This document shows, one piece after another, positions 6,527-29,313 of a stretch of 32,000 bases of DNA. The notes beneath the pieces are model-generated. The model made no database searches. It was not told where the DNA came from and saw only the letters and a program-made list of their open reading frames with translations. This DNA is from Synechococcus sp. A15-28 (GTDB lineage: Bacteria > Cyanobacteriota > Cyanobacteriia > PCC-6307 > Cyanobiaceae). A program made the position numbers and the translations under genes. Every line of letters begins with the position of its first letter. The stretch's first letter is position 1. Where the stretch lies: positions 90,001-122,000 of the forward strand of contig NZ_CP047931.1 in assembly GCF_014280175.1 (NCBI RefSeq), given 5' to 3'.

Positions 6527-6539
6527 CAGTTTGTCTTCT

Positions 6540-10496: not shown

Positions 10497-12013
10497 CCAT
10501 CGCTCTCCCACTGACGGAAGGAAGTTTCGTAATCCGGTCTCGGTTGCACTCCTTCAGGAATCGGCTCTTTCATCTGCCTGTAGAGCCCTGCCTTGGCACA
10601 GCGGTAAAACACAGAAACTTGGTTCAGGTGCTGGCGCTTAAGTCCAGCATTTTTGAGGTGATGCAGCATGATCCGGTCGCCAATCAGGTGGCCGTAGGGC
10701 GGCATCAGCACCCACTGGTGCAGAAGATGGAAGGAGCCCCGGCCAAACAGCATCGCGTTGGTGTCAATGAACCGCTCCGGATCGGTGAGCGGGCAGGGGC
10801 CCATCACCGTGCCGTCCAGGCGGCAGAGGGTGCGGCTGGAGGAGACGAAGTCGGCCTGGTGCTGGTCCATCTCTGCTAGCAGGCTGGCGATGTGGTCTGG
10901 CCTGTACCAGTTGTCACCATCGAGGAAGGCCACGGCGTCCACCCCAAGGCCGATGGCGTGATAGCTGCCGATCAAGCGCGGTGTCGATCCGATATCACCA
11001 TGGCTGCGCGGTAGCCGCACGTGCTCGGCACGCCAATGGTTGATCCGCCTGCGGCGGTGGCCGTCGGCCACCAGCACATGCAGGCAGGGCTCGCTCTGGG
11101 CCAGCACGCTGTCGTGGCACTGGCGCAGCTGGGCCAGGGGTTCCTTGTAGTAAGGCGTGATCACGGCCACCCGGGGCAGGGGATTGCCCAGGGCCTTTAG
11201 CAGTCGCCGGTCGTCAATCAGCTCACCGCGCACCAGTTGGGCTGCGAGCGCGGCAGGTTTGGGCCGGAGGCTGTCGTAATAGGCCGGCAGGGTTCCCTGA
11301 CTGAGGTGATTCGCGTAGATCTTTCGCCAGCTGTCACCGATGCCCGCACTAACGCGTTTGTTGCGCTGTAGAGCCTCCGTTCCCTGTCGGATTTTGCGTT
11401 CGAGCTGCGCATAGCTGCGAATGGGCACATGCAGGATCTCGATGCCGGCGTTCTCTATCGCGCTGATGGGCGTTCCATCCACCCCGGCGCCGTGGTTGCC
11501 ATCGCTGATCTCAATCCCAGCATGGGCGCGATGAATCAGCTTGGGGGGCAGTGGCTTGCCGAGGCTGTTGCGTGAGACCCGTTCCCGCAGGGTCTGGCGT
11601 TGATAAAACGGCGTTTTGTCCGCGATGTTCCGCACCGGTGGCAGAAAGTTGGTGCGCTCCACCAGCACTCCCTTAATACTTTCCGGCACCTGGGTCAGGC
11701 TGGATTTCAGGCTGCCTTGCTCCGGCCACCAGAACTCATCCGCATCGCTGTTGATCACCCAGTCCGCCCCCATCGCCGCCGCCATGCGCGCCATGCGGGT
11801 CACCCACACGGCCTGGTCGTGGGTGTGCTCCGGTTCCTGCAGCAGTGTCAGCTGACCGCGGCGTTCGAACCGCTTAAGGATCTCCAGGCTGCCGTCCACC
11901 GAACCGTTGTCGGTGGCGATGATCCGGTCCACCCCCTGGGCCAGATGGAAGCGCAGCATGCTCTCAAGGATGTCGGCTTCATCCCGGCAGAGCAGTGTTA
12001 GCACCAGCATCAT
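10481..12013 (-). CDS. Two-domain family-2 (GT-A) glycosyltransferase
   Basis: 510 aa. Domain 1 is [36 protein letters not shown] ... [12 protein letters not shown]. Domain 2 is [25 protein letters not shown] ... [14 protein letters not shown]. Both carry D-x-D-type motifs. The ATG overlaps the upstream stop as ATGA (12010-13). Confidence 0.8.
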
Positions 12014-12864
12014 GGTGCGGCCCTCTTTGTTCGTTTGGGCTTGAGTTGAAGCTCCGGGCGTGGGCTCATACGTCCGTAATACCAGTGCATCTCCGGTGTG
12101 AGGTTGGTCAGTGGCAGGTCATGGGAGGGGCCAATGGCGAGACAGGCGTTGATCAGTTGTTTGAGCTCCGGGTCGCTGAACGTCGCCTTCTGCTGCTTGT
12201 ACCGAAAACAGGGGAAGTCTTCCCGGTGGAGCAGATTGGCCATGGCCTGAAGATCGGGGTGGTTGCGGAGTGCTGTCAGATCCGCTGTCTCCCGGCGTCC
12301 TGCGCCCTCTCCCACGGCCTGGAGACGCTTCCGCAGGCTCTTGGGCAGAGAGAGCGTTTCCCCCAGCGCTTCGAGATCGCTGCTGAATTGCTCGCAGCGG
12401 ATCAGCTGATCCACCATCGGGCGTTTGCCGAGGTGGGTGAACCAGTGGATTGGAAAACCATGCACCCAGCGCAGGTCGTGGGCATCCATTGCAGCCGGAA
12501 GCCGCCGCAGGTAATGCAGGAGCTGTTCATTGGTGGGTGGCTGGCTGCTGACCTGCATTTCGGTTGCTCGGCTTTTTTGGCGCAGGTGTTCCCGGCAGGC
12601 GGAGGCCAGGCGGTCGTAGGGATGACGGATGCAGGCAATGACCTGGTAACGGCGCAGCCAGCGCCATAGTTTGGTGTGACGTAGGTCCATTAAGGGACGG
12701 TGGGCCAGGTCCACTTGCCGTTTCAGCACCGGGTCGTAGCTGAAGTCGAACCAGCTCTCGGTCCGCCGATCAGCGCCGTCCTCCAGAAAGGCTCTGCGCA
12801 GGGCGGTGCCGGCACACTTGGGAATGTGCAGAACAACCAGCTTCAGATCGTGGTCAACGATCAC
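12010..12864 (-). CDS. Sulfotransferase-family protein (Sulfotransfer_2-like)
   Basis: 284 aa. It has a 5'-phosphosulfate-binding loop LVVLHIPKCAGTALRRAF and a 3'-phosphate-binding motif IACIRHPYDRLASA (R-x-P-x-x-R-x-x-S). The GTG start overlaps the cysE stop as GTGA (12861-64). Composition is high-GC, like the host. Confidence 0.7.
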   Translation of the reverse strand: MIVDHDLKLVVLHIPKCAGTALRRAFLEDGADRRTESWFDFSYDPVLKRQVDLAHRPLMDLRHTKLWRWLRRYQVIACIRHPYDRLASACREHLRQKSRATEMQVSSQPPTNEQLLHYLRRLPAAMDAHDLRWVHGFPIHWFTHLGKRPMVDQLIRCEQFSSDLEALGETLSLPKSLRKRLQAVGEGAGRRETADLTALRNHPDLQAMANLLHREDFPCFRYKQQKATFSDPELKQLINACLAIGPSHDLPLTNLTPEMHWYYGRMSPRPELQLKPKRTKRAAP

Positions 12865-13607
12865 CCGCTGTTCTCCCCCAGGAACTCGAGAATCTCCCGG
12901 TCCTTGAGGCTCTGGGCTTCACCGCGGCAGACATCCCGCAGCTGCCGCCCCTCGGCAACCTCCTTGAGGCAGCGCTGCAGATTGCTCACCGTGCTTTCCA
13001 GTTCATCGATCCGCTCCATCAGGTTGCGGATCACATTGGCTTCCGCATCCGGTAGGGCGGAGTGGGCCAGGGGGTTGATTCGTACGCCGCTTTGGTGAAT
13101 CACCCGGCCGGGGATGCCCACAACGGTGCAGTCCGCCTCCACGTCGCGCACCACCACCGAACCAGCGCCGATGCGGGTGTTGGCACCCACGTTGATCGCC
13201 CCCAGCACCTTGGCGCCGGCACCGACCACCACGTTTTCGGCCAGGGTGGGATGGCGTTTGCCGTGGTCCTTGCCGGTGCCGCCGAGGGTGACGCCCTGAT
13301 ACAGCAGGCAGTGATGCCCCACTTCAGCGGTTTCGCCGATCACCACCCCCATGCCATGGTCGATGAATACGCTGTGGCCAATCCTGGCGCCAGGGTGGAT
13401 TTCAATGCCGGTGAGCGCCCTGCCGATCTGGCTGAGGCAGCGCGCCGCGAGTTTCATCGGTAGGTGGCAAGTCCAGAGCCGGTGGCTGAGCCGATGCAGG
13501 CTGATGGCCTGAAATCCGGGGTAGCAGAACAGAATCTCCAACCAACCACGGGCCGCCGGGTCGCGCTCGCGGATGATGGCGAGATCGGCTCGGATCTGAT
13601 CGAACAT
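12861..13607 (-). CDS. cysE: Serine O-acetyltransferase
   Basis: 248 aa. The sequence includes DPAARGWLEILFCYPGFQAISLHRLSHRLW and the hexapeptide-repeat core IHPGARIGHSVFIDHGMGVVIGETAEVG...GTGKDHGKRHPTL...VGAGAKVLG. Confidence 0.93.
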   Translation of the reverse strand: MFDQIRADLAIIRERDPAARGWLEILFCYPGFQAISLHRLSHRLWTCHLPMKLAARCLSQIGRALTGIEIHPGARIGHSVFIDHGMGVVIGETAEVGHHCLLYQGVTLGGTGKDHGKRHPTLAENVVVGAGAKVLGAINVGANTRIGAGSVVVRDVEADCTVVGIPGRVIHQSGVRINPLAHSALPDAEANVIRNLMERIDELESTVSNLQRCLKEVAEGRQLRDVCRGEAQSLKDREILEFLGENSG

Positions 13608-13617
13608 CGGGGTTGAT

Positions 13618-14619
13618 TCAGCTGGCGGCCGCTGGGGTCTGCAGGCCGATCTCCTTGCGGAGCAGATCGATCGTATCGGTGCTGAGGTAACTCTCGGCGC
13701 AGTGCACCTGCGGCATGCGCATCAGCTGGGAGCGATTTTGCCGCAGGCTTTGCTCCACCAACGGCAAGCTGGGGCGGTCGCAGAGCACATGGCTGGAGGC
13801 CCTCAAGAGAGCCAGCAAGCGGCTGCCCACGTCCGGCGTAGCGGTCATCAGCAGCAGTTCGTTGCCGCGCATGGAGTGGAGGATCACCTCCGCCGCCCGC
13901 AGGATGCCGGGGCTGATGCTCACCAGGCCCACGCAACTGCCCTGTCGCAGCTCCTTCAGCATCGCCAGCTCGTGGCGGAAGTCGTTGAGGTCCACCGCCA
14001 CGGCCCGAACGCCGTGTTTCTTCGCCAGCTCCTCTACAGGCTGGAGGAAGTAACGGCTTGTCACCACGGTGCCGTTGCTGGAACTCTCCAGGACGTTTTC
14101 CAGCTCCTCCATCGGCACCACCTCCACCGGCACATCGAGGCAGGGTTCAAGTTCCTCGGAGATCAGCATCGAGGCGCCGATGTCCTCACGGGGGGTGCTC
14201 ACCAGCACCCTGGCGCCGCAACGCAGCCGCCAGTCGATCTCACGGGTCAGCAGTTCACGGGTCTGCTGCAGGGTGCAGCCGGCATTGAGCAGGCCGTCCA
14301 CGCACTTGCGCACCTCCCGGTCGAGATCGGTGACGCCCCTGTTGCGGATATGGGGTGGTGTCTTGATTTCCCTTGGCTTCTGCTGATCGCGCACGTAAAT
14401 GCCGGAGCCGGCCATGGCTTCCACCACGCCGTCGGTCTCGAGCTGCCGGTACACCTTGCTGATCGTGTTGCGGTGCAGACCGGTCTGCATCGCCAGCTGC
14501 CGGGTGCTCGGCAAGCGGTGGCCGGGGGGGTAGTGCCGTGCCGCAATCGCGAAGCAGATCTGGTTGTACAGCTGGGTCGACGCCGGGATGTCGCTTTCCT
14601 GCTGGATGTGGAATCGCAC
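13618..14619 (-). CDS. GntR-family winged-helix transcriptional regulator (cyanobacterial PlmA-like)
   Basis: The wHTH segment is LPSTRQLAMQTGLHRNTISKVYRQLETDGVVEAMAGSGIYV, followed by a long C-terminal effector domain. The ORF is open up to a TTG at 14745. I prefer the GTG at 14617-14619 (V-RFHIQQESDIPASTQLYNQ) because, from memory, PlmA-type proteins begin near this motif. The start is uncertain. Confidence 0.85.
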   Translation of the reverse strand: MRFHIQQESDIPASTQLYNQICFAIAARHYPPGHRLPSTRQLAMQTGLHRNTISKVYRQLETDGVVEAMAGSGIYVRDQQKPREIKTPPHIRNRGVTDLDREVRKCVDGLLNAGCTLQQTRELLTREIDWRLRCGARVLVSTPREDIGASMLISEELEPCLDVPVEVVPMEELENVLESSSNGTVVTSRYFLQPVEELAKKHGVRAVAVDLNDFRHELAMLKELRQGSCVGLVSISPGILRAAEVILHSMRGNELLLMTATPDVGSRLLALLRASSHVLCDRPSLPLVEQSLRQNRSQLMRMPQVHCAESYLSTDTIDLLRKEIGLQTPAAAS

Positions 14620-14791
14620 GCCGGTGGGCCAGGTGGGAATGCGGCCACCATAAGGAGCGATTCCCGTGGTGACAATTGGGGGTGTGTCCTGTGGACCTGT
14701 GACAATTTCCGACTCAACCCGTGCTGGCTGGGTGTCCGTGGCCAACGGGCCGCTGGCCTTGCGCTGCTGGTGGTCCGCACCATCGGAAACT

Positions 14792-14842
14792 CAGCACGAT
14801 ATCAATAAGTTATCTGTTTCAAATCGTGCATATATCGTGCTG
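14792..14842. promoter_or_regulatory. Perfect 11-bp inverted repeat CAGCACGATAT-N29-ATATCGTGCTG plus a third ATCGTGC half-site; candidate operator upstream of the GntR gene
   Basis: 14792-14802 and 14832-14842 are exact reverse complements. The heptamer GCACGAT/ATCGTGC occurs at 14794-14800, 14823-14829 and 14834-14840. The repeat sits in a locally AT-rich patch in the divergent region upstream of the regulator. Confidence 0.35.
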
Positions 14843-15079
14843 CCTGAGGTCACTGGGAGCTTGACCTGCCTCTGCGGCACGACCGATCCTTGGATCCCAG
14901 AGCCAGACCGCGCTTCGATTCAGCGGGCCTTGGCGGCCCAGGATCCCAGTGGTGAGAAGTTTCGCTATGAGGAGCTGGCCGGAGCTGACCATGGCTCCAT
15001 GTGTGAGGCCCGCAGCAACTTTCAGGCTGCAGCAACGGCCCGGGGCTGGCAGCTGCTGTTGGCCGCGCTCAAGGCTTGA
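14837..15079 (+). pseudogene. C-terminal remnant (~80 codons) of a dienelactone-hydrolase-family gene
   Basis: The tail of ORF 14666-15079 reads LCGTTDPWIPEPDRASIQRALAAQDPSGEKFRYEELAGADHGSMCEARSNFQAAATARGWQLLLAAL. This matches the DLH C-terminus (G-x-x-D-p-x-i-P ... y-x-g-a-x-H-g-f ... aa-x-x-aW). The ~170 N-terminal residues carrying the nucleophile are absent, and that space is occupied by the GntR gene on the other strand. A GTG lies at 14837. Confidence 0.45.
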
Positions 15080-16664
15080 TCAGCCCCTGCTTTAGCCACC
15101 AGCCGCGCCGGCGGGCATCGATGCGCCGCAGCAAATCCTTATCCCAGGACTGGAAGCGGTTGCTGAGCCGCTGCTGTTCCAGCCCGGACGCCGGTGGGCT
15201 GGGGCTCCAGCTGGCGGGCAGCACTTCGCTGGCGAAACAGCCGAAACCCGTGCTGGTGTCGGGCATCCAGGGTGGCAGTTGTGGTGGGGTTGGCAGGCCC
15301 GCTGCAATCGCCTGCTGGCGCCGTGCCGTCAGATCCGCCACGAGGGCGCGCCACTGTTCAATCACGCTGCGCCAGTTGTAGTGCGTTTCCACCCGCCGTC
15401 GCCCTGCGGCCCCCATGGCGGCGCGCAGGTCCGGTGCTTGCAGCAGGGTGGAGAGGTGCTGTTTGAACTGCTCCAGGTCAACGGCAATGCCCTGGGCCAC
15501 ACGGCCAATCGCCTGGCTGTAGTCCGCTGTTTCGTGGAGCATCTGCTGGGCTTCCGCGGCCCCTAGCCCAGCCACCAGCCGGGTGGTCACCCGCAGGCCG
15601 GTGGCCGCGCCCGCTTCCCCGGGTTGCACCACGCTCTCCCGGTAGCCGTCCCAGTCACTCACCAGGCAGGGCAGTTCCGCAGCCATGGCCTCCAGCGGTG
15701 TGATGCCGAAGGTTTCCTGGGGGTTGTCCGACAAGCTGACGAAGACGTCGGCGGCCCAGCGCACCGGTCTGGCCAGCTCCATGGCCCGGCCCGGCACCCA
15801 GTGCACCGTCAAGGATGGGGCAAGTTGTCGGGTGGCCTTTTTCCACAGCTCCAGCATCTCGGCGCTGGGGGCTTCGCCGTACACCAGCAGCTCTAGATCT
15901 GGGTGCTGCGTCTGCTGCAGCTCTGCCAGGCTATGGATCAAGGGTGCAGGCTGGAATTTGGTCAGCAGGTCCAGGCGGCCTGCCAGCAGCACCACCTGGG
16001 CCTCCGGGCGAATACCGAGGCGGGCACGGGCCTCGCGGCAGGCGTCTGCCTTGCTCACCGGCGGCGCCCAGCCTTCGGGGTGGATCCCCAGCGGGATCAC
16101 CGGAAGTTGAGGCCGCTCGAAGCGGCAGGCCTCGTTGCGGCGGCGCAGCCAGTCCTCTTGGCGATTCAGGAACCCCTCCACTACCTGGCGGGCGGCTTGG
16201 GAGGTGCAGATCAAGGCATCCCAGGGCCGCACCGGTGCGCTGCTGTACTGCCCCAGCGCGTTCTGAACGCTGTAGCTGCACAGGGTGTGGACGATGCCGA
16301 TGATCGAGTAAGCCCCATCCCCCCAGGGCATCCGTTTCCAGGCCCAGTGGTTGATGCCCGGATCTGGCACATGGATGGCCCCGGTGCTGCTGGCGGCGTC
16401 ACCCCACCGATTCAGGCCAACCGCTTCTGTGCGGGCGTCAGCCTGGACGGCTCGGGCTGCCCCATGGAACCACTCTCCATCCGCCTGATGGGGAACCACA
16501 AGGCTGTGGGTGCTGTTGCCGGAGTAGTGGAGGTAAGCCTCGAGGAACGACGCTCCGGCCGACTGGCGTCCCAGGGGTTGGTTGGGATCCACCTGGAAGC
16601 CGTTGCGAACCATCACCAGTGTCAGCGGCAGGGGGGATGGCGATCGCGTCGCGTCAGCGTTCAT
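15069..16664 (-). CDS. Glycosyltransferase, GT4 / group-1 family
   Basis: 531 aa. The E-x7-E region is DVFVSLSDNPQETFGITPLEAMAAELPCLVSDWDGYRE. Composition is high-GC, like the host. Confidence 0.85.
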   Translation of the reverse strand: MNADATRSPSPLPLTLVMVRNGFQVDPNQPLGRQSAGASFLEAYLHYSGNSTHSLVVPHQADGEWFHGAARAVQADARTEAVGLNRWGDAASSTGAIHVPDPGINHWAWKRMPWGDGAYSIIGIVHTLCSYSVQNALGQYSSAPVRPWDALICTSQAARQVVEGFLNRQEDWLRRRNEACRFERPQLPVIPLGIHPEGWAPPVSKADACREARARLGIRPEAQVVLLAGRLDLLTKFQPAPLIHSLAELQQTQHPDLELLVYGEAPSAEMLELWKKATRQLAPSLTVHWVPGRAMELARPVRWAADVFVSLSDNPQETFGITPLEAMAAELPCLVSDWDGYRESVVQPGEAGAATGLRVTTRLVAGLGAAEAQQMLHETADYSQAIGRVAQGIAVDLEQFKQHLSTLLQAPDLRAAMGAAGRRRVETHYNWRSVIEQWRALVADLTARRQQAIAAGLPTPPQLPPWMPDTSTGFGCFASEVLPASWSPSPPASGLEQQRLSNRFQSWDKDLLRRIDARRRGWWLKQGLIKP

Positions 16665-16673
16665 CGCAGCGCA

Positions 16674-16689
16674 CAGGCCTCAAGGCCTG
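16674..16689 (-). other. Short GC hairpin (CAGGCC-TCAA-GGCCTG) between the infC stop and the downstream GT4 start
   Basis: 16674-16680 CAGGCCT and 16683-16689 AGGCCTG are perfect reverse complements. No U-tract follows on either strand, so this is not a canonical intrinsic terminator. Confidence 0.3.
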
Positions 16690-16702
16690 GGATCCTCCCG
16701 CA

Positions 16703-17356
16703 TTAGGCCTGCGGCGCGGCCACCTTGGCGGCCGTGGACCGTGGTGGTGCCGGGATGGTGCGCACCGCCTTGGTCGGAGCGGCCTCCTTCTCCTCCTTCT
16801 TCACCAGGGGCGTCTTGCGCGGCGTGAGGAACATGATCATGTTGCGGCCCTCCCGTTTCGGAGCCTGCTGGATCTCAGCCTTTTCCTCCAGGTCCTTGGC
16901 CATGCGCCGCAGCAGGGTTTCTGCCAGGGCGGTGTGCTGAATCTCCCGGCCGCGGAAGATCACGGTGCACTTCACCTTGTCGCCGGCCTTGAGAAAGCGC
17001 ACTGCCTGACCGATCCGCACGTCGTAATCGTGCTGATCGATCTTGTAGCGCATCTTGACCTCCTTGACTTCGGTTTGATGGGACTTCTTCTTGGCTTCCT
17101 TGGCTTTCTTTTCCTGCTCGAATTTGAACTTGCCGTAATCCATGATTCGACACACCGGTGGATCGGCCTTCTCGCTCACCAGCACCAGATCCAGTTCACG
17201 ATCTTTGGCCACCTCCAGGGCTTCTTCCCTGCTGATCACCCCGAGTTGGCTGCCGTCTGAGTCGACCACCCGCAATTGGGGGTAGCTGATCCGGTCGTTG
17301 ATGTTGGGCAGCTCCCGAACAGGAGCACGACGGTCAAAACGGGGGCGTGGGGGCAT
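16703..17356 (-). CDS. infC: Translation initiation factor IF-3
   Basis: 217 aa. The sequence reads [66 protein letters not shown]...[17 protein letters not shown]...FRGREI, with a Lys/Pro/Ala-rich C-terminal tail. Confidence 0.97.
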
Positions 17357-17412
17357 TCAGGCGGAGACAGGTACAGGTGCAGACAACACGAAGATCACAA
17401 CGTCTGCATTCT

Positions 17413-18390: not shown

Positions 18391-20432
<2,042 letters not shown>

Positions 20433-20433
<1 letters not shown>

Positions 20434-20738: not shown

Positions 20739-20739
20739 A

Positions 20740-21517: not shown

Positions 21518-21929
21518 AGCGGGCGATCACGGTGCCGTCCTTGCCCACGAGGAACTTCTCGAAGTTCCAGGCCACATCACCGGCGGGCTCCATCTGGTTG
21601 AGAGTCGTGTAGGGCTCGGAGGTGCTGCCCATGGCGTGCACCTTCTCGAACAGCTCAAAGTCGGCGCCGTAGGTGGTGGAGCAGAAGCTCTTGATCTCGT
21701 CGAGGGTGCCGGGCTCCTGACCACCGAAGTCGTTGCAGGGGAAACCCAGCACCGCCAGGCCCTTGTCGGCGTAGGCCGCGTTGAGGGCCTGCAGGCCGGC
21801 GTACTGCTTGGTGAAGCCGCAGCGGCTGGCCACATTCACGATCAGGAGCACCTTGCCGGCGTAGTCACCCAGGGATTTGCTGCTGCCGTCGGGGGTGTTG
21901 ACGGTCACGGTGCTGACGCTGATCGCCAT
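21456..21929 (-). CDS. gpx: Glutathione peroxidase-family protein (Cys type)
   Basis: 157 aa. Motifs are LLIVNVASRCGFTKQY, LGFPCNDFGGQEPG and WNFEKFLVGKDG. The active site is Cys, not a TGA/Sec codon. Confidence 0.93.
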   Translation of the reverse strand: MAISVSTVTVNTPDGSSKSLGDYAGKVLLIVNVASRCGFTKQYAGLQALNAAYADKGLAVLGFPCNDFGGQEPGTLDEIKSFCSTTYGADFELFEKVHAMGSTSEPYTTLNQMEPAGDVAWNFEKFLVGKDGTVIARFKSGVDPEELKSPIEAALAA

Positions 21930-22002
21930 GGCTGAACAAGGGAAGTTGCCGCGAGGTTAACCGGCTGTAACGGCCATACACTTGGTCGCCGGCTGGTGAG
22001 CG

Positions 22003-23463
22003 ATGACTGAGGGAACCGGGCTGACTACAGCGGGCGTCACCGTGGAACATCACCTGCTGGCGGAGGTGGTGACCCGGCAGCTCGAGGCGATGCTCAGCGT
22101 CGGCAATTACGACGCGGTGAAGCTGCTGCTGGAGCCGGTGCAGCCGGTGGACGTGGCCGAAGCGATCGGCAATCTTCCTCAGAACCTCCAGGCCATTGCC
22201 TTTCGTCTGCTCAGCAAGGACGAGGCCATCAGTGTTTACGAGTACCTCGACACCGTCACCCAGCAGAACCTGCTGAGCCTGCTGCGCTCTGGCGAGATGC
22301 AGGAGGTGATGGAAGAGATGTCGCCCGACGACCGGGCGCGGCTGTTCGAGGAGCTGCCGGCGAAGGTGGTGCGTCAGCTGCTGGACCAGCTCAGCCCGGA
22401 GGAGCGCAAGGTCACCGCGGAGCTGCTCGGCTACGAGGCCGAAACCGCCGGTCGTCTGATGACGACTGAGTACATCGCCCTGAAGGAAAACCAGACCGCC
22501 CTTGAGGCCCTCGACATCGTGCGTCGGCGCGCCCGCGACACCGAAACCATCTATTCCCTGTACGTCACCGACACCGAACGGCGGCTCACTGGCATCCTGT
22601 CCCTGCGGGATCTGGTGACCGCTGATCCCCACACCCTGATCCGCGATGTGATGACGGAGGAGGTGCTCAGCGTTCGCACCGACACCGATCAGGAGAAGGT
22701 GGCCCGCACGATCCAGCGTTACGACTTCCTGGCGGTGCCCGTGGTGGACCTGGAGCAACGGCTGGTGGGGATCGTCACCGTCGACGACGTCATCGACGTG
22801 ATCGAGCAGGAGGCCACCCGCGATCTGTACGCCGCCGGCGCTGTACAGGCTGGCGACGAGGACGACTACTTCAGCAGCAATCTGTTCACCGTGGCCCGCC
22901 GCCGGGTGGTGTGGCTCGCGGTGTTGGTGGTGGCCAGCTTCTTCACGTCCGAGGTGATCGCCGCCAATGAGGAGGTGCTCCAGAAGGTGGTGCTGCTGGC
23001 GGCTTTCATTCCCCTGCTGGGCGGAACAGGGGGGAACGTGGGGGCCCAGAGTTCCACCGTGGTGATCCGTGGCCTGAGCACTCAGAGCATCAGCGCCCTT
23101 GGACCGTTGAAGGCGGTGGGTCGTGAGGCGATGGCCGGAGCGTTGCTGGGAATCCTGATGATGATCCTGGTGGTGCCCTTCGCCTGGTGGCGGGGTGAAA
23201 GCCCCCTGGTGGGGTTGTCGGTGGGGATGAGCCTGCTGGCGATCACCACCCTGGCGGCCACCGCTGGCGCGGCCTTTCCGCTGCTGTTCGATCGGATGGG
23301 GTTGGATCCGGCGCTGATGTCTACCCCGTTCATCACCACCTGCACGGACGTGGCCGGCACCCTGATCTATCTCAAGACAGCCGAATGGCTGCTGGTGCAC
23401 CTGCCGCAGCAGCTCACGGCCACAGGTATTTCTACCCAAATCGCCCCAGCCTGGCTTTCCTGA
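22003..23463 (+). CDS. mgtE: Magnesium transporter MgtE
   Basis: 486 aa. It has the MgtE N-domain, a CBS pair (MTTEYIALKENQTALEAL...; LAVPVVDLEQRLVGIVTVDDVIDV) and a C-terminal membrane domain (IPLLGGTGGNVGAQSS...). Confidence 0.95.
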   Translation: MTEGTGLTTAGVTVEHHLLAEVVTRQLEAMLSVGNYDAVKLLLEPVQPVDVAEAIGNLPQNLQAIAFRLLSKDEAISVYEYLDTVTQQNLLSLLRSGEMQEVMEEMSPDDRARLFEELPAKVVRQLLDQLSPEERKVTAELLGYEAETAGRLMTTEYIALKENQTALEALDIVRRRARDTETIYSLYVTDTERRLTGILSLRDLVTADPHTLIRDVMTEEVLSVRTDTDQEKVARTIQRYDFLAVPVVDLEQRLVGIVTVDDVIDVIEQEATRDLYAAGAVQAGDEDDYFSSNLFTVARRRVVWLAVLVVASFFTSEVIAANEEVLQKVVLLAAFIPLLGGTGGNVGAQSSTVVIRGLSTQSISALGPLKAVGREAMAGALLGILMMILVVPFAWWRGESPLVGLSVGMSLLAITTLAATAGAAFPLLFDRMGLDPALMSTPFITTCTDVAGTLIYLKTAEWLLVHLPQQLTATGISTQIAPAWLS

Positions 23464-23515
23464 GAGCTCGTTTACGTTTCTTAGGAGTACTCTTTACATA
23501 ACTAAAAGAAGCGTC

Positions 23516-24514
23516 ATGGCTCGTGCTGCCGCAACTGCTTCAAAACCTGCTTCTGCTGCCCGCAGCGTCAGTGTGGACGTTGATCTGGTTCGCTCCTATC
23601 TGCGTGACATTGGCAGGGTTCCCCTGCTCACCCACGAGCAAGAGATCACCCTTGGACGCCAGGTTCAGGATCTGATGGATCTTGAGGCCCTCCAGTCCGA
23701 ACTGGAAAGCCGTGACGGCGATAAGCCCTCTGCCGACATGTTGGCCAAGGCATCCGGTCTCACGTCCCTTCAGCTCAAGCGCAAGCTTCAGCACGGTCGA
23801 CGTGCCAAAGAGCGGATGGTCGCGGCCAACCTCCGTTTGGTGGTGAGCGTCGCCAAGAAGTACACCAAGCGGAACATGGAGCTTCTGGATCTGATCCAGG
23901 AGGGCACCATCGGATTGGTGCGTGGTGTGGAGAAATTTGACCCCACCCGTGGCTACAAATTTTCCACCTACGCCTACTGGTGGATTCGTCAGGGCATCAC
24001 TCGGGCGATTGCTGAGAAGAGCCGCACCATCCGGCTGCCCATTCACATCACCGAGATGTTGAACAAGCTGAAAAAGGGCCAGAGGGAGCTCAGCCAGGAG
24101 CTGGGTCGCACGCCCACGGTTTCGGAACTGGCTGAATTCGTTGAACTGCCTGAGGATGACGTCAAAGATCTGATGTGCCGCGCCCGCCAGCCGGTTAGCC
24201 TTGAAATGAAGGTTGGAGATGGTGACGACACCGAGCTGCTCGAGCTTCTGGCTGGTGATGGAGATCTTCCCAGCGATCAGGTGGAGGAAGACTGCATGAA
24301 GGGAGATCTACGTAGCCTGTTGGGTCAACTCCCCCATCTCCAGGAGCAGGTGCTGCGGATGCGTTACGGCATGGATGGCGAAGACCCGATGAGCCTCACC
24401 GGTATTGGCCGGATTCTGGGCATGAGCCGCGATCGGGTTCGCAACCTGGAGCGCGATGGTCTGGCCGGTCTGCGCCGAGTGAGCGATCAGGTGGAGGCCT
24501 ATGTGGCTTGTTGA
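23516..24514 (+). CDS. RNA polymerase sigma factor, sigma70 family, group 2
   Basis: 332 aa. Motifs are VRSYLRDIGRVPLLTHEQE, ANLRLVVSVAKKY, LDLIQEGTIGLVRGVEKFD, YAYWWIRQGITRAI and the region 4.2 segment SLTGIGRILGMSRDRVRNLE. It is short, with no long region 1.1, which points to group 2. Confidence 0.95.
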   Translation: MARAAATASKPASAARSVSVDVDLVRSYLRDIGRVPLLTHEQEITLGRQVQDLMDLEALQSELESRDGDKPSADMLAKASGLTSLQLKRKLQHGRRAKERMVAANLRLVVSVAKKYTKRNMELLDLIQEGTIGLVRGVEKFDPTRGYKFSTYAYWWIRQGITRAIAEKSRTIRLPIHITEMLNKLKKGQRELSQELGRTPTVSELAEFVELPEDDVKDLMCRARQPVSLEMKVGDGDDTELLELLAGDGDLPSDQVEEDCMKGDLRSLLGQLPHLQEQVLRMRYGMDGEDPMSLTGIGRILGMSRDRVRNLERDGLAGLRRVSDQVEAYVAC

Positions 24515-24539
24515 GGCCTCTTTAAGCTTGAGCTAGAGC

Positions 24540-25235
24540 TCTGGCCAATGGTTTGAAACGCCAACTGCAGTTCGTTCATGTTGGTAAGTGTGGGGGCTCC
24601 ACTGTCAAAAAGCTCCTTCCAACTTCTCCTGTCGTCAAAAAACAATACTCTTCATTCTTTGAGTCACACATCAACGGCGTAGTTGTTGATTCGAATTGTG
24701 ATTATCTGTTTTGCCTGCGTAACCCGATTAGCAGAGCTTTTTCGGCTTTCGAGTGGCGTAGAAAGCTTGTTCTTGAGGACGAGCTTCCTGATCAAGTTCG
24801 ACGCTTTCCTGGCGAGAGAAAGGTTCTGCGCAAATACTTGAGTTTAGGTGCGATGGCGCGATCTCTCTACCGGCCAGATGGAAGACTTGACCAGGTTGTG
24901 GCTAGAGATTTTCGCAGCGTTCATCATTTGCGTGAGTCAATATCTTTTTACTGTCAACCTCTGTTGGGTGTGCTCACCCCAGGCAATATTTTTGGTGTTG
25001 TTTGTCAGGAGACCTTGGCTTCTGATTGCGAAAGAGTATTGCGTGTTGATGTGTCAGAGGTCCGGGAGCGCAGCAATGTATCAAAGAGGCAGATCGAGCA
25101 AGATCTTGATGCCGCAGCAATAAATAATCTGAGAAGATTCCTCGTTGAGGATTACCAATGTGTTGCAGCGCTTTGGAGCCTTGGGGCGCTGAGCCAAAAG
25201 CAGTTTTGGAGTGTCATGACGAAGGTAGTTTAGGG
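24540..25235. other. AT-enriched islet II (one sulfotransferase-like gene)
   Basis: Hand counts give 22/60 G+C for 24601-24660 and 24/60 for 24901-24960. The flanking sigma-factor and hydrolase genes have a visibly higher GC content. Confidence 0.55.
24553..25233 (+). CDS. Sulfotransferase-family protein (Sulfotransfer_2-like)
   Basis: 226 aa with a TTG start. The 5'-PSB loop is FVHVGKCGGSTVKKLL, and the 3'-PB motif is FCLRNPISRAFSAFEW (R-x-P-x-x-R-x-x-S). The 3' end overlaps the convergent hydrolase gene by 20 nt. Confidence 0.6.
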   Translation: MKRQLQFVHVGKCGGSTVKKLLPTSPVVKKQYSSFFESHINGVVVDSNCDYLFCLRNPISRAFSAFEWRRKLVLEDELPDQVRRFPGERKVLRKYLSLGAMARSLYRPDGRLDQVVARDFRSVHHLRESISFYCQPLLGVLTPGNIFGVVCQETLASDCERVLRVDVSEVRERSNVSKRQIEQDLDAAAINNLRRFLVEDYQCVAALWSLGALSQKQFWSVMTKVV

Positions 25236-26140
25236 AGAGGCGATGTCAGTGCTTTGAGCAAAGCCTGATTGGTTGTATTCGGTGCCTCGTCATGGGGACA
25301 GTGTCCGGCACCTTGTATCACTGTGAGCGAGCGCACGCAATCGATGGTTTCTTTCCATCGCTGTGCTTCAGGTAATGGCTCCCAGGGATCCTTGTCCCCC
25401 CAAACCATATCCACCGGAATCGAGAGGTCCTGCATCAATTGTGGGGCGAGATAGTCGTCGAACAAGTTGATGAAGCCACGAAAGGCTTCGGCCGCCCCAT
25501 CGCGTTGGGTGGGTTGGTACAGCAAGTTGATCAGCTCGTCGTCGATGTTGCTGCCACTGGGGTAGGCCTGCTTCAACACTCTGCGGATCACGCCAGGCCG
25601 TGCCGCATTGCGGAATAGGACTGTGCTGAGCCAACGCTGACGCACCATCGTTTTCAGCAGCGGTCGGATCCAGGCCATCCAGGCTGGCTGTGCGGCCAGC
25701 TGTTTGTCATCCATCAAGCGCTGGGCGCAGTCGATCAGTACAACGCCTTGGCAACGGTCTCCAAGTAGTTGTGCCGCTCGTAGAGCCACGACCCCGCCGA
25801 TGGAATTGCCCACCAAGTGCACCGGCCGATCGATCACCTCATGGCAGAAGTCGGCCACCTGCTGGCCCCAGAGGTCAAAGCTGTAATGAACGTAAGCTCC
25901 GCTGTCTTGTTCATCTTTCAATCTGGCTCGGGGTTGATCGCTGCGCCCGAAACCGAGCAGATCAATGGCATAAGTGGGCGCCTGTTTAGCCAGCACCGGT
26001 TGGTTGAAGCGCCAATGATTTGTGTTGGCTCCGAAGCCATGAATTAATAATGTTGCGGAGGCATTGTTACTGTTATTAATTACGTTCCAGTTTATTGAGT
26101 AACCTCTCCAGGTCCAGCATTCAAAATTACGATTTTGCAT
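25214..26140 (-). CDS. Alpha/beta-fold hydrolase
   Basis: 308 aa. It has the oxyanion region LLIHGFGAN, the nucleophile elbow LVGNSIGGVVAL (G-x-S-x-G) and the C-terminal His region GAGHCPHDE. The first ~30 codons (about 26040-26140) are AT-rich, unlike the rest of the gene. Confidence 0.85.
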   Translation of the reverse strand: MQNRNFECWTWRGYSINWNVINNSNNASATLLIHGFGANTNHWRFNQPVLAKQAPTYAIDLLGFGRSDQPRARLKDEQDSGAYVHYSFDLWGQQVADFCHEVIDRPVHLVGNSIGGVVALRAAQLLGDRCQGVVLIDCAQRLMDDKQLAAQPAWMAWIRPLLKTMVRQRWLSTVLFRNAARPGVIRRVLKQAYPSGSNIDDELINLLYQPTQRDGAAEAFRGFINLFDDYLAPQLMQDLSIPVDMVWGDKDPWEPLPEAQRWKETIDCVRSLTVIQGAGHCPHDEAPNTTNQALLKALTSPLPKLPSS

Positions 26141-26960
26141 TCCAGTTGATCCTTTTTTGGAGTCCGATATTAGCTAAAAGTGGGCTGTCCCTAAGGCTGC
26201 TGTTAGTGTTTTCGTAATCCAGAATTTTATATCCATAAAACTTTAGCAATTTTTTGCTATGCTTGAGATGGTGATTTGCTTCTTCTAGGCCGTCCAATCC
26301 TAAAAAACTCAAATGTCTAGGGGTCATGTCTATAATACATTGAATTGGAAAATTTTTTTTACCCCTTAATTTGTTATTCCGATTTAGCTTCAAATGTTTT
26401 TTTTCGAGCCTCAGCATGGAAATCAGATTTTCTGGATTTTTGCAGAAATGTTCATAAGAAATGAATGGTATATTAGGAAAATTTTCTATATTTTGTTTTT
26501 GAATGAGAGCTCTCTTGATCCATCTCATTGTTGCGCAATTTATTGCATTTTTTATATCCATCCCTTCCATATAGTTTTCGACATTTGAACTTATGTACGA
26601 GTATGGTGAGCTTATGGAAAGAATAGATCTGTGATGCGGGAAAGTGTCTGTAATTGGCTTTATTCTCAATAAGTTCGGTGGGCTACATTCTATGAATATT
26701 TTCTTGTGATGTTTTTTCGCATAGCTGCTCCATATGGTTTTGATTTTTGACCAGTCAAATTTTTGGTTTTGATCCCATTTTTTTATGCTCATGATTCTCT
26801 TTGCTTCTGGTATTGCCTGGCCTTCATTGTTGCCATATTCTGGCAAGTAGCTGTTTGATATGCAGTTATTAATGTACTGACTCATTATAGTTGTGCCTGA
26901 ATTATTGAGGGAAAATATGAATATGAAAAAGGTGTCGTCTGAGTATTGATGGCTGTCCAT
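26127..26960 (-). CDS. Sulfotransferase-like P-loop protein
   Basis: 277 aa. The N-terminus FFIFIFSLNNSGTTIMSQY resembles the PAPS 5'-PSB loop (x-x-S-G-T-T). Overall size and position fit small cytosolic sulfotransferases, but the 3'-PB motif is not clear. The stop overlaps the hydrolase start region by 14 nt. Confidence 0.5.
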   Translation of the reverse strand: MDSHQYSDDTFFIFIFSLNNSGTTIMSQYINNCISNSYLPEYGNNEGQAIPEAKRIMSIKKWDQNQKFDWSKIKTIWSSYAKKHHKKIFIECSPPNLLRIKPITDTFPHHRSILSISSPYSYISSNVENYMEGMDIKNAINCATMRWIKRALIQKQNIENFPNIPFISYEHFCKNPENLISMLRLEKKHLKLNRNNKLRGKKNFPIQCIIDMTPRHLSFLGLDGLEEANHHLKHSKKLLKFYGYKILDYENTNSSLRDSPLLANIGLQKRINWNAKS

Positions 26961-27027
26961 TTTTATCGAATCCTAAGTTGCATAGGAGTCATTGGTTTTG
27001 ATAATAATTTCTCGTTGCTGCGTTTTC

Positions 27028-27045
27028 ACCGGCATTTATGCCGGT
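27028..27045. other. Perfect hairpin ACCGGCAT-TT-ATGCCGGT at the right edge of islet III
   Basis: 27028-27035 and 27038-27045 are exact reverse complements (an effective 7-bp stem with a 4-nt loop). There is no strong U-tract on either strand. Confidence 0.3.
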
Positions 27046-27349
27046 TATGCGCCACCCCAAGCACCAATGTTATGGCCAACACCACTCCTCCAAAGATGAC
27101 CGTGCCCGGGTTGTTGGTCGTGGGCTTTATCTCTGTTAATCAGTACTAGTAGTAGAAAGCCGGTAACGCTGCGGTGGTAGTCATCAGGATCGGCTTCAGC
27201 CGGATTCGACGGATCGCACCGTCGCCTCGGTGATGCGTAATCGCTGCTCGTGCTTATGGTCGACTATCTCCACGATGTGCTGGTCCTTGGCAATTCAGTG
27301 ACGTTTGAACCTGGCGCGGACACAGCACGGTTTGAACTTCCCATCGTTG

Positions 27350-28456
27350 ATGCCTAAGCAGCCTTTCCCTGTGCCGGTGCTCGCTGAAGCGTTGCTCACC
27401 TGGTGGGGCGAACAGGGTCGGCGTGGGATTCCCTGGAAGCTCTTGACCGATGGCGCGCCCCCGGTTCTCGAACAAGATCTCGACCCTTACGGCATCTGGA
27501 TCGCGGAGGTGATGCTGCAGCAGACCCAGTTGGCGGTGGTACTTCCCTACTGGGAGCGTTGGATGACAGCGTTCCCCACAGTTGAGGCTCTGGCTGCTGC
27601 ATCTCTTGAGGAGGTGCGGTTGCAGTGGCAGGGGCTCGGTTACTACTCGCGGGCTCGCCGGTTGCATGAGGCGGCGCAGCGGTTGGTGGGCGGGCCTTGG
27701 CCCCGCAGCTTGGAGGGCTGGATGGCCTTGCCGGGCATCGGTCGCACCACCGCCGGCAGCATTCTGTCCAGTGCCTTCAATGCTTCACTGCCGATTCTGG
27801 ATGGCAATGTCAAACGGGTGCTGGCGCGATTGACGGTATATCCGCGCCCGCCGGCTCGCGATGACGCTTTGTTTTGGAGCTGGAGTGAGGCTTTGCTCGA
27901 TCCGTTGCGGCCGCGGGACACCAACCAGGCCTTGATGGATCTGGGGGCCACGGTTTGCACCCCTCGCCAGCCGGACTGCCACCGCTGCCCCTGGCAATCC
28001 CACTGCGCTGCCTACGCTTCCGGCGATCCTTGCCGCTGGCCCATGACCGACGCCCCGAAGCCCCTGCCCTTTCAAGTGATCGGTGTGGGCGTTGTGCTCA
28101 ACGTGGCGGGGGAAGTGTTGATCGACCAGCGTCTGGAGGAAGGTTTGCTGGGGGGGATGTGGGAGTTCCCCGGCGGCAAACAGGAGAAAGACGAAACGAT
28201 CGAAACCTGTATCGCTCGCGAACTTAAGGAGGAACTCAGCATTGCGGTGACGGTCGGCGATGAACTGATCACTGTTGATCACGCCTTTAGCCACAAGAAG
28301 CTGCGCTTTGTGGTCCATCTCTGCAATTGGGAGTCGGGGGAGCCGCAGCCTCTTGCCAGTCAACAGGTGCGTTGGGTGCGTCCGGATGACCTGAAGAACT
28401 TCGCCTTCCCAGCGGCCAACGCAAAGATCATTGCGGCGTTGCTGGCTCGCCGATGA
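27350..28456 (+). CDS. mutY: A/G-specific adenine DNA glycosylase MutY
   Basis: The ORF opens at a TTG at 27305, and the first ATG is at 27350. Motifs are PYGIWIAEVMLQQTQ, LGYYSRARRLH, the HhH segment LPGIGRTTAGSILS and the 4Fe-4S cluster C-x6-C-x2-C-x5-C (CTPRQPDCHRCPWQSHC). The C-terminal NUDIX-like domain reads GGMWEFPGGKQEKDETIETCIARELKEEL. Confidence 0.93.
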   Translation: MPKQPFPVPVLAEALLTWWGEQGRRGIPWKLLTDGAPPVLEQDLDPYGIWIAEVMLQQTQLAVVLPYWERWMTAFPTVEALAAASLEEVRLQWQGLGYYSRARRLHEAAQRLVGGPWPRSLEGWMALPGIGRTTAGSILSSAFNASLPILDGNVKRVLARLTVYPRPPARDDALFWSWSEALLDPLRPRDTNQALMDLGATVCTPRQPDCHRCPWQSHCAAYASGDPCRWPMTDAPKPLPFQVIGVGVVLNVAGEVLIDQRLEEGLLGGMWEFPGGKQEKDETIETCIARELKEELSIAVTVGDELITVDHAFSHKKLRFVVHLCNWESGEPQPLASQQVRWVRPDDLKNFAFPAANAKIIAALLARR

Positions 28457-29313
28457 AGTTGCTGCTCCATGCCGGCCCGATGAAAACGGGCTCAACGGCG
28501 TTTCAGGAATTGCTTGTGCTCAATAGCTCCCAGTTGGAGCAGTGCGGAATTCGCTTCCGCCATCTGCGCCGCCAGGAGCTGGACGACCTCGAGGCGGTGG
28601 TGGAGGCCGAGCAAAGACGGGGTTGGCCGCGGGTGTTGTTGCTGTCCCATGAATGTCTTTGTCGGGTGGATCCGCAGCGCTTGAAAGCGGCGCTGCATTT
28701 GGTGCCAGTACCTGCAGAAGCCGTTTTGGTGGCGCGACCGCTGCGGGAGGTGTATCCGAGCCTGTATCTCCAAAACCTCAAAGGGCACGTGATGCGCACC
28801 TCCTCCTACGAGGAGTTTCTGCAGGAACAGATCGACCGGGATCGGCGGCCGGAGTTGGCGACGCGGGGGCAGGTGTTTCGCTACGCCTTTCTGGAGGAGC
28901 AGATGCAGGCCGCGGGTTGTGCGGTCCAGTGGGTCTCCTATGCACGTTCATCCCTGCTGGATGATCTGGTGGCCTGGTTGGCGCACAACGCCGATGCAGC
29001 GGAAATGTTGCGCGCACTGAAGCCCCTACCAATGCCAAGTGGTGTGAGTCCACGACGGTCTCTGGATGGAACTGTTGTTGAAATAGCCCGCCTGATGAAT
29101 GAACGTTGTCGTGCGGGAACGCTGTCTCCTGAGGATCGTGACAGATTTTTGGTTGCCTTACTGAACAGCAGCGATCGGATTCGTTCCCAACGCCAGGGCC
29201 TGGATTCTTTCCGTGAAAATCACGCTGATCAGCTGGATGCTTTGGATCATGAGCTCAATGGCGACTTCTGGCGCCAGCGAGCCATGCATCCGACTCCATG
29301 GGATCCGACATAG
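28453..29313 (+). CDS. P-loop protein of unknown function, sulfotransferase-fold-like
   Basis: 286 aa. The N-terminus LLLHAGPMKTGSTAFQELL has a (P/h)-x-K-T-G-S-T loop, followed later by VARPLREVYPSLYLQNLKG. The ATG overlaps the mutY stop as ATGA. Composition is high-GC, like the host. Confidence 0.45.
   Translation: MKLLLHAGPMKTGSTAFQELLVLNSSQLEQCGIRFRHLRRQELDDLEAVVEAEQRRGWPRVLLLSHECLCRVDPQRLKAALHLVPVPAEAVLVARPLREVYPSLYLQNLKGHVMRTSSYEEFLQEQIDRDRRPELATRGQVFRYAFLEEQMQAAGCAVQWVSYARSSLLDDLVAWLAHNADAAEMLRALKPLPMPSGVSPRRSLDGTVVEIARLMNERCRAGTLSPEDRDRFLVALLNSSDRIRSQRQGLDSFRENHADQLDALDHELNGDFWRQRAMHPTPWDPT

Follow-up and report, generated by a model that had tools for sequence, protein, structure and literature searches.

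Flexible islands rich in envelope genes are familiar in marine picocyanobacteria, and the hypervariable islands of these organisms, with their cell-envelope genes, were reportedly described by Coleman and colleagues in 2006, by Dufresne and colleagues in 2008 and by Avrani and colleagues in 2011. The bacterial sulfotransferases NodH and Stf0 are soluble, cytoplasmic enzymes of the type that uses 3′-phosphoadenosine 5′-phosphosulfate (PAPS), and they act on glycoconjugate intermediates. They represent the glycolipid or oligosaccharide sulfotransferases of rhizobia (NodH) and mycobacteria (Stf0) (PMC8205485). In cyanobacteria, sulfated polysaccharides and sulfotransferases have been established through the synechan (xss) cluster of Synechocystis sp. 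PCC 6803 (PMC8205485), and 12 Pfam sulfotransferases were counted in the marine Synechococcus WH8102 (PMC8205485, supplementary file 3). Full-text searches of the literature returned no paper on sulfotransferase islets, sulfated products or gene-level function in marine Synechococcus or Prochlorococcus. The present analysis concerns a stretch of 32,000 nt from Synechococcus sp. A15-28 (NZ_CP047931.1, positions 90,001–122,000; hereafter the window) and four of its open reading frames (ORFs), labelled ST1–ST4, for which related sulfotransferase-like motifs had been predicted.

ST1–ST4 are four separate small insertions (“islets”) in gaps between core genes, three carrying a sulfotransferase-family gene and the fourth (ST4) a sulfotransferase-like gene that has no annotation:

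12010..12864, reverse strand: ST1, Sulfotransfer_2-family sulfotransferase of 284 aa; GC content (GC) 0.61, native-like
24553..25233, forward strand: ST2, putative sulfotransferase of 226 aa, divergent and Sulfotransfer_2-like; GC 0.47
26127..26960, reverse strand: ST3, Sulfotransfer_3-like protein of 277 aa; GC 0.35; upstream of abH, with a 14-nt overlap
28453..29313, forward strand: ST4, member of an unannotated family, 286 aa; GC 0.59; overlaps mutY by 4 nt and pfkB by 16 nt

All four ORFs exist as predicted, the quoted motifs can be read in their translations, and each protein has conserved homologues. As in the synechan (xss) system, sulfotransferases of distinct subfamilies are found beside several glycosyltransferase (GT) genes (PMC8205485). 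Unlike in that system, the genes of the window are dispersed between housekeeping genes, with a content that varies independently from strain to strain, and Wzx, Wzy, PCP, OPX, an ABC exporter or a regulator resembling XssQ, XssR or XssS could not be found among the ORFs scanned with Pfam and NCBIfam. With the picocyanobacterial islands the locus shares strain variability, atypical GC, borders formed by core genes, richness in GTs and apparent homologous recombination. It differs from them in consisting of several single-gene islets of 0.7–2.4 kb that are rich in sulfotransferase folds and have no tRNA at their borders. No sequence match of NodH or Stf0 to ST1–ST4 turned up, and no search was aimed at them.

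The islets interrupt a backbone of the order secA–cysE–GntR–infC–miaA–gyrB–crcB–mgtE–sigma–abH–mutY–pfkB–tsaE, with two crcB genes. This order was common to 80 gyrB-centred loci, reaching up to 10 kb to each side, from species-representative picocyanobacterial genomes, among them WH7803, WH8017, MIT S9451, MIT S9507, Cyanobium, Vulcanococcus and low-light Prochlorococcus. In these 80 loci no copy of the ST1–ST4 families was detected by tblastn or with hidden Markov models, and pfkB comes immediately after mutY in L008, L023 and others. The GT2 gene at 10481 likewise had no tblastn match in the 80 loci, and the GT1 gene at 15069 gave only matches of 31–38%, located elsewhere in two of them. In contigs of closer relatives, the following arrangements were observed:

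L081 (UW69-like contig): sigma, methyltransferase, abH, RND pump, mutY, ST4 homologue (36% identity, GC 0.42), pfkB
L082 (single-amplified genome, SAG, GCA_003209165.1): sigma, ST2, methyltransferase, abH, GT61, mutY, ST4 homologue (37% identity, GC 0.39), pfkB
L083: a further, decayed copy of the 3′ end of abH just downstream of ST2
L109: ST4-family gene in the abH–mutY slot; mutY abuts pfkB
L111: sigma, ST2 (57%), ST3 homologue (48%), abH; the ST3-type gene lies on the other side of abH
L112: ST2 missing; ST4 homologue at 60%
L113 (SAG GCA_003208915.1): ST2, abH, GT61, ST4 paralog A, mutY, ST4 paralog B, pfkB
L114 (6266–7204): abH, GT61 and ST4 paralog A as in L113; serine recombinase gene ∼1.5 kb downstream

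The two ST4 paralogs of L113 (3251–4111 and 6490–7308) are 2.4 kb apart, one on each side of mutY. The ST4 family as a whole occupies swap-prone slots around mutY, sometimes as two paralogs, and its alleles show 31–92% identity and a GC of 0.39–0.59 (0.39–0.53 outside the window). As copies are present, absent, moved, duplicated or replaced from one relative to another, the neighbourhood is one in which sulfotransferase-fold and GT genes repeatedly arrive and are exchanged, and the region is likely to be a turnover hot spot for such genes. The original prediction had proposed repeated, independent acquisition or replacement of sulfotransferases in this neighbourhood. This was borne out by the gain, loss, relocation, duplication and allelic replacement seen in the related contigs, the mixed composition reflecting separate histories. 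The proposal is, however, to be refined in that ST1–GT2, ST2 and ST4 have long occupied fixed slots in many lineages, and ST3 is a recent, rare import.

The Sulfotransfer_2 family (PF03567) comprises the Golgi-type heparan sulfate (HS) 2-O- and 6-O-sulfotransferases, the galactose-3-O-sulfotransferases and bacterial relatives. ST1 was assigned to it directly, with 36.6 bits against a cut-off of 22 (E = 7e-9) over model positions 4–251 of 252, and the ST2 family also matches it. The patterns H-I/V-x-K-C-x-G-[ST] and R-x-P-x-x-R-x-x-S are common to both proteins. Unlike the Golgi-type enzymes, ST1 and ST2 have no transmembrane anchor, ST2 is very short, and neither has a close solved structure. 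ST1 was the sole one of the four with a PHROG family match (PHROG 3347, “Galactose-3-O-sulfotransferase,” E = 3.5e-7), and no relative of it was found in the PDB by sequence or by family profile. The loop of ST1 reads HIPKCAGT (K16) and its 3′-phosphate motif RHPYDRLAS (R80, S88). Among 14 homologues K16 and R80 were invariant, and position 88 was occupied by Ser in 11 and by Ala in three.

ST1 is the middle gene of a cassette and overlaps by 4 nt both the stop of cysE upstream and the start of the GT2 gene downstream:

10481..12013, reverse strand: two-domain GT2 glycosyltransferase (PF13704/PF01697 N-terminal, PF00535 C-terminal)
12861..13607, reverse strand: cysE, serine O-acetyltransferase (TIGR01172, 233 bits, cut-off 210.65), a core gene

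GT2 and secA converge, and their stops overlap by 16 nt. The order cysE–ST1–GT2–(gap)–secA was retained in 21 of 21 metagenome contigs (L086–L106) as far as each extends, and GT2 followed ST1 in every contig that reaches past ST1. Over these contigs ST1 was 59–93% identical as compared with 79–98% for cysE, GntR and secA, and the GC was native-like throughout; in the backbone of related genomes cysE is kept at 67–85%. The constant order, the identities and the native-like GC indicate that ST1–GT2 is an old, vertically kept and fast-evolving cassette of one set of lineages. Extra genes lie between the ST1–GT2 cassette and secA in L089, L091, L100, L101 and L104. The cysE–secA slot of related contigs holds a fusion of Sulfotransfer_2 with Gly_transf_sug (DXD) (24.2 and 33.3 bits, both above the cut-off) and likewise a 275-aa Sulfotransfer_3-like protein (23.2 bits; HEGRCGSS and RRNGLRRLVSH):

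L100:3407–4942 and L089:5697–7034, reverse strand: fusion and Sulfotransfer_3-like genes in the cysE–secA slot of relatives

The window contains neither the fusion nor the 275-aa gene, and GT2 and secA overlap there. The occurrence of a sulfotransferase–GT fusion in the same slot elsewhere supports the pairing of ST1 with GT2 (Rosetta-stone argument). Hence, a predicted link to glycans is supported for ST1 only, through the overlapping GT2 cassette and the slot fusion of the relatives.

ST2 is positioned directly after the gene of a group-2 sigma factor and converges on abH with an overlap of 20 nt. With its loop HVGKCGGST and its 3′-phosphate motif RNPISRAFS, it is regarded as a short, divergent enzyme of the Sulfotransfer_2 type, an assignment that draws on its family. 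By itself ST2 scored below the PF03567 cut-off of 22 (12.7 bits, E = 0.14). In the family, 35 of 43 diverse relatives matched PF03567 (best E = 3.1e-7), nine also matched Sulfotransfer_1 and three Sulfotransfer_3. All seven PDB matches of the family profile were sulfotransferases, the best being 3rnl (E = 0.0016), followed by weak matches to HS6ST, HS2ST and 3-OST. Comparison of the ST2 family with the ST1 family by hhalign gave a probability of 94.9% (E = 4e-8, 198 columns). Eight residues, K12, G15, H39, R56, P58, R61, S64 and H125, were invariant in the family (n = 43, down to 25% identity). ST2 has 305 close homologues, with 75–91% identity among the 120 listed, and an exhaustive search gave 424 clusters at 50% identity. 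The ST2 homologues of L082–L085, L113 and L114 had a steady GC of ∼0.44–0.47 against ∼0.57–0.59 in their flanks; their GC has thus stayed low although the gene is a long-term resident. The decayed abH 3′-end duplicate of L083 (L083:979–1283, reverse strand), which adjoins the downstream end of the ST2 homologue, contains stop codons and appears to be left over from a cassette exchange through abH.

ST3 scored below the cut-off of 27 for Sulfotransfer_3 (PF13469; 22.9 bits, E = 1.2e-4), and 10 of the 12 members of its family matched this model (best E = 6.3e-9). The family profile also matched the sulfotransferase domain of CurM (4gbm; E = 0.0064), the alignment running across the 3′-phosphate region. 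Only 11 homologues of ST3 were found among 5.8 billion proteins. ST3 and most of its relatives approach or match the Sulfotransfer_3 model, and the loop Arg and the 3′-phosphate Arg of CurM are missing in the family. In the ST3 loop NNSGTT, which contains no Lys or Arg, N19 is aligned with the Arg of the CurM loop (PRSGST), and S116 in SISSPYSYISS is aligned with the Arg of the CurM 3′-phosphate motif (VRHPYS). Asn in place of Lys/Arg and Ser in place of Arg hold in every family member that covers these positions. As ST3 is without the usual PAPS-binding residues, it could depend on another donor or lack catalytic activity. Other invariants of the family are kept (R98, K200, H215 and SPPN), which may mean non-canonical cofactor binding or a different donor.

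ST3 is embedded in a block of distinct composition:

26000..27000: low-GC block (GC 0.28–0.43 in a 100-bp profile) with sharp bounds that covers ST3 and the beginning of abH

The first ∼30 codons of abH fall within this block (26000–26140) and are Asn-rich, yet they align with other abH proteins. As the start of abH is inside the block, the breakpoint of the ST3 import lies within a core gene. This is the signature of homologous recombination that brought in the segment from a donor of low GC in which abH lay beside an ST3-type gene. No tRNA, insertion sequence or meaningful repeat was found at the borders of the block. The gap between ST3 and mutY (26961–27304) comprises 344 nt of intermediate GC (0.51). 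An antisense ORF of 137 aa (27254–27667, reverse strand) overlaps the mutY start, and L112 carries a 137-aa UPF0114 gene at the equivalent place; the ORF could thus be a remnant, or the mutY start could be mis-called.

By its model, ST4 is a P-loop kinase/sulfotransferase fold with a loop of the sulfotransferase type and not of the Walker A type. The AlphaFold2 model is of high confidence (predicted local distance difference test, pLDDT, 92.7; predicted template modelling score 0.88), with a strand at residues 2–6, the loop and a helix at 14–23, followed by a strand at 88–94 and a helix at 97–110. The loop GPMKTGST does not contain the GK[ST] of Walker A (GxxxxGK[ST]) and fits the sulfotransferase pattern PKxG[ST]T. 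R95 and S103, separated by seven residues, are placed at the strand-to-helix junction. Their eight-residue spacing is presumably that of the Arg and Ser in the sulfotransferase 3′-phosphate motif. Invariant in the family are M10-K11-T12, T15, E67, R95, Y101-P102-S103 and L106-Q107-N108-L109-K110-G111, and G13 is conserved in at least 90%. In a Foldseek comparison with the PDB, the greatest query coverage was obtained for the sulfotransferases 3rnl (query-normalised TM-score 0.43) and 6xkg (0.42), with 0.35 for 4gbm. Taken together, ST4 is probably a PAPS-type sulfotransferase. Its homologues number at least 126 at 90% clustering, and all named ones are “hypothetical.” The origins checked were marine picocyanobacteria apart from one proteobacterial metagenome-assembled genome (MAG). 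The most distant homologue (31%), from a Pseudomonadota MAG (L107:2871–5121), divergently adjoins the gene of a 401-aa protein that faintly matches Glyco_tran_28_C (GT-B), and this pairing of an ST4 homologue with a GT-B-like gene recurs in a second contig.

The N-terminal motifs of the four proteins had been described as related. This holds for the ST1 and ST2 families, which are homologous as judged by hhalign; ST3 and ST4 have no detectable relation to them or to each other. The R-x-P-x-x-R-x-x-S motif was confirmed in the two proteins for which it had been claimed (RHPYDRLAS in ST1, RNPISRAFS in ST2). The proposed resemblance to the PAPS 5′-phosphosulfate loop applies to ST1 and ST2, in which the Lys is kept, and to ST4 with its sulfotransferase-type loop, and fails for ST3 (NNSGTT, with no basic residue). 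Pfam and profile searches, which had been suggested as a check, assigned ST1 directly and ST2 and ST3 through their families, leaving ST4 without assignment. Linking ST4 to the other three by profile–profile comparison was dropped, as hhalign of the ST4 family against the ST1, ST2 and ST3 families was not significant. The control pair, the ST3 and ST2 families, was not significant either; the test therefore lacks power and is uninformative for ST4. Membership of the sulfotransferase superfamily is very likely for at least three of the four, and the balance inclines slightly towards membership of all four.

The density of such genes had been called unusual. When 12 sulfotransferase genes, the WH8102 Pfam count, were placed randomly on 2.34 Mb and a 17.3-kb window was considered, P was 0.033 for at least three genes and 0.0008 for at least four. 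With 30 genes, the values were 0.42 and 0.034. Hence, the clustering is probably non-random on these P values, which use a gene count borrowed from WH8102.

The reading favoured here, and held to be probable, is that of independent islet modules in which sulfotransferase-fold genes are swapped between core genes and most likely vary sulfated sugars. ST1, ST2 and probably ST4 would act in the cytoplasm, transferring the sulfate of PAPS to an acceptor. ST1–ST4 are taken as cytoplasmic since their translations show no N-terminal signal peptide or long hydrophobic stretch. For ST1, the acceptor would be a glycan intermediate or sugar added by the co-transcribed two-domain GT2. The islets would be exchanged by homologous recombination via the flanking core genes, as suggested by the abH 5′ end that was carried in with ST3, and, with phages or grazers exerting pressure, their turnover may diversify a glycoconjugate of the cell envelope. 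The prospect that the products are sulfated envelope glycans is about even for ST1 and lower for the rest.

Several observations weigh against this reading. ST1–ST4 are distributed over at least four separate transcription units split by housekeeping genes, and the window contains no PAPS-synthesis gene, no gene for polysaccharide export or polymerisation and no acceptor. The rationale of phage or grazer pressure comes from general knowledge of picocyanobacterial islands. The close relatives were sampled as about 35 short contigs and not systematically. For ST2, the model is poor (pLDDT 62.7, shallow alignment), and its Foldseek list, though almost purely of sulfotransferases, has E-values of at least 0.023. 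The basic residue of the PAPS loop and the 3′-phosphate Arg are not present in ST3 or its family alignment. ST4, alone or as a 36-sequence profile, had no match in Pfam, NCBIfam or the PDB, and its model gave no Foldseek match in the PDB at E ≤ 1e-3, with nucleotide kinases scoring equally. As for the single diversifying sulfated glycoconjugate that the original prediction inferred from these genes, the four separate units and the lack of Wzx/Wzy/PCP/OPX or ABC export genes mean that this claim goes beyond the evidence.

The points concerning ST3 and ST4 raise an alternative, namely, that only ST1 and ST2 work as sulfotransferases, ST4 being a nucleotide- or sugar-kinase-like P-loop enzyme that perhaps acts with pfkB, ST3 being degenerate or repurposed, and the clustering having no common function. 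It would account for the missing profile match of ST4, the 16-nt overlap of ST4 with pfkB and the Asn-for-Lys/Arg and Ser-for-Arg exchanges at the PAPS-binding positions of the ST3 family. The Foldseek list of ST4 mixes sulfotransferases with gluconokinase, adenylate kinase and designed P-loop proteins, which stand at its top at E-values equal to those of the sulfotransferases, and the result in BFVD is likewise mixed. With only two or three true sulfotransferases, moreover, the clustering would be weakly significant (P = 0.03 for at least three of 12). A kinase-like ST4 is, however, difficult to reconcile with a loop that lacks the Walker A GK[ST] and fits PKxG[ST]T, with the invariance of R95 and S103 at the 3′-phosphate spacing, and with sulfotransferases being the full-length structural matches of highest query coverage. 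Elsewhere, members of the ST4 family occur in the abH–mutY slot, away from pfkB, and adjoin GT61 or GT-B genes. Relatives of ST3 pass or approach PF13469, which argues against a degenerate ST3. On this evidence, the alternative is considered unlikely.

The nature of the acceptors leaves room for a different explanation, in which they are not surface glycans but small metabolites, lipids, peptides or natural products, so that the variation would be metabolic or allelopathic. The window offers no GT partner for ST2 (flanked by sigma and abH), ST3 (paired with abH) or ST4 (flanked by mutY and pfkB). In other strains the same slots are filled by methyltransferases and an RND efflux pump, and the nearest solved relative of the ST3 profile, CurM, is a natural-product sulfotransferase. 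These facts have to be set against the tie of ST1 to GT2 in every contig extending past ST1, the sulfotransferase–GT fusion in the same slot, the GT61 gene that accompanies ST4-family genes in L082, L109 and L113, and the four to six GTs of the window, and they leave non-glycan acceptors improbable. At the other extreme, the sulfotransferases, GTs and sulfatase could form one coordinated pathway for a sulfated exopolysaccharide (EPS) like synechan (xss). Sulfotransferase and GT genes do occur within 30 kb with a sulfatase nearby, and cyanobacterial sulfotransferases have been reported mostly in EPS clusters (PMC8205485). The gene content largely refutes such a pathway, as the scanned ORFs offered none of the Wzx/Wzy/PCP/OPX/ABC export genes or XssQ/R/S-like regulators. 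The genes are split into at least five units by secA, infC, miaA, gyrB, mgtE, sigma and mutY, each is present or absent in other strains independently of the rest, and the sulfatase island is not beside secA in the related loci examined. A single pathway is thus very improbable, and independent islets of exchangeable sulfotransferase-fold genes remain the preferred interpretation.

The sulfatase belongs to a separate compositional unit at the left end of the window, listed here together with a GT gene inserted farther along in the backbone:

1..7600: low-GC island (GC about 0.38, range 0.36–0.39), ending 96 nt before secA; its left border is outside the window
5086..6495, reverse strand: S1 sulfatase of the Cys (formylglycine) type (PF00884, E = 9.5e-33), with the motif CMPAR (CxPxR) intact
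15069..16664, reverse strand: GT1/GT4-type glycosyltransferase of 531 aa (PF00534, E = 1.8e-16), inserted in the GntR–infC slot

The predicted sulfatase was confirmed by its PF00884 domain and intact formylglycine motif. Its nearest solved structure was 9koq (E = 8e-28), in which CVPAR is aligned with CMPAR, followed by choline sulfatases, and it is most like cytoplasmic choline- or aryl-sulfatases. No signal peptide was seen in it, as the N terminus leads straight into the first conserved strand. A formylglycine maturation enzyme (FGE or anSME) was not found within the window. Besides the sulfatase, the island contains a GT4, a tetratricopeptide repeat (TPR) protein with a GIGD-motif C-terminal domain, another TPR protein, a DSD-motif GT-like protein and a GT1. 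Among 111 loci searched for the island genes, one weak TPR match was found, and nothing beside secA. The association of the sulfatase with the sulfotransferases did not stand, since it belongs to this separate island, which is missing in the relatives examined, and proximity is the sole link.

Six GT genes had been counted in the window. Four were confirmed by Pfam (134–1432, 6531–7586, 10481–12013 and 15069–16664). The other two (1460–2947 and 4274–5089) had no profile match and are GT-like by motif only (GIGD, GT9-like, and DSD, GT-A-like, respectively). The C-terminal part of 1460–2947 and the ORF 4274–5089 were also considered as further sulfotransferases and rejected, as neither a sulfotransferase profile nor any other matched. 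The GT at 15069–16664 additionally gave a weak match to the Pfam model “GT4-conflict” (E = 5e-5, below threshold), and a 62% homologue of it adjoins GntR in L089.

Marine Synechococcus are among the most abundant phototrophs, and the chemistry of their surface has a bearing on phage adsorption, grazing and aggregation as well as on the dissolved organic matter that they release. The enzyme families and the flexible islets described here are known, and the observations are within expectations for marine picocyanobacteria. Worth follow-up are the unannotated ST4 family and the loss of both basic PAPS-binding residues in the ST3 family. The locus offers compact units for this, i.e., the cysE–ST1–GT2 cassette, the widespread short ST2 and the ST4 family with its high-confidence model, together with natural variants in gene presence and allele that could serve comparative phenotyping. 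Should the products be sulfates of the envelope, the region would open a way to strain-level surface diversity. It would then also be a candidate source of the sulfated polymers that the associated heterotrophs appear able to break down, as indirectly suggested by the Flavobacteria associated with a Synechococcus culture, which have sulfatase-containing polysaccharide utilisation loci (PMC7029141). A more far-reaching idea is that ST4 founds an unrecognised family of PAPS-dependent sulfotransferases and that, together with genes of the ST1–ST3 type, it makes up a “sulfation-variation” region that sets the strain-specific sulfate of the envelope and affects susceptibility to phages or grazers. 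This idea is tentative and must be called doubtful. If the products are not envelope sulfates, the locus would be a routine case of flexible islets with known enzyme families.

The window is a segment of marine Synechococcus subcluster 5.1, “Parasynechococcus”-like. The best match of gyrB among species-representative genomes was a “Parasynechococcus” MAG (96%), followed by WH7803-type Synechococcus, Cyanobium and low-light Prochlorococcus. Composition and domain scans identified the high-GC backbone (about 0.57–0.67) as picocyanobacterial, with the following genes around the islets:

7683–10496: secA, backbone
18466–20433: gyrB, backbone
23516–24514: cyanobacterial group-2 sigma factor, backbone, directly preceding ST2
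25214..26140, reverse strand: abH, alpha/beta hydrolase (PF12697/PF00561), backbone
27305..28456, forward strand: mutY (PF00730 and PF14815), core gene and left flank of the ST4 slot
29298..30266, forward strand: pfkB-family sugar kinase (PF00294, E = 2e-43), core gene and right flank of the ST4 slot

The abH gene is present in the backbone of marine Synechococcus and Prochlorococcus, and most Cyanobium-type loci had no match to it; at this locus it would act as the anchor for recombination. The GC was 0.611 for ST1 (0.72 at third codon positions, GC3), 0.471 for ST2 (GC3 0.45), 0.347 for ST3 and 0.588 for ST4. Compared with the backbone, these values agree with the three compositional classes that had been proposed, with the correction that ST2 has a GC of 47% and not about 40%. 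ST2 (0.47), ST3 (0.35) and the island at 1–7600 (0.38) are thus atypical against their flanks; ST1 (0.61) and the ST4 allele of the window (0.59) are not. A phage origin of the low-GC genes was rejected, as tblastn of ST2, ST3 and ST4 against 50,697 phage records returned nothing. A role in anti-phage defence was likewise rejected, PADLOC giving no match for ST1–ST4, two GTs (including 15069–16664) or the sulfatase. In the island, the TPR gene at 3235–4323 and the GT-like ORF at 4274–5089 overlap by 50 nt in different frames, which could reflect genuinely overlapping genes, a wrongly called TTG start or a frameshifted fusion.

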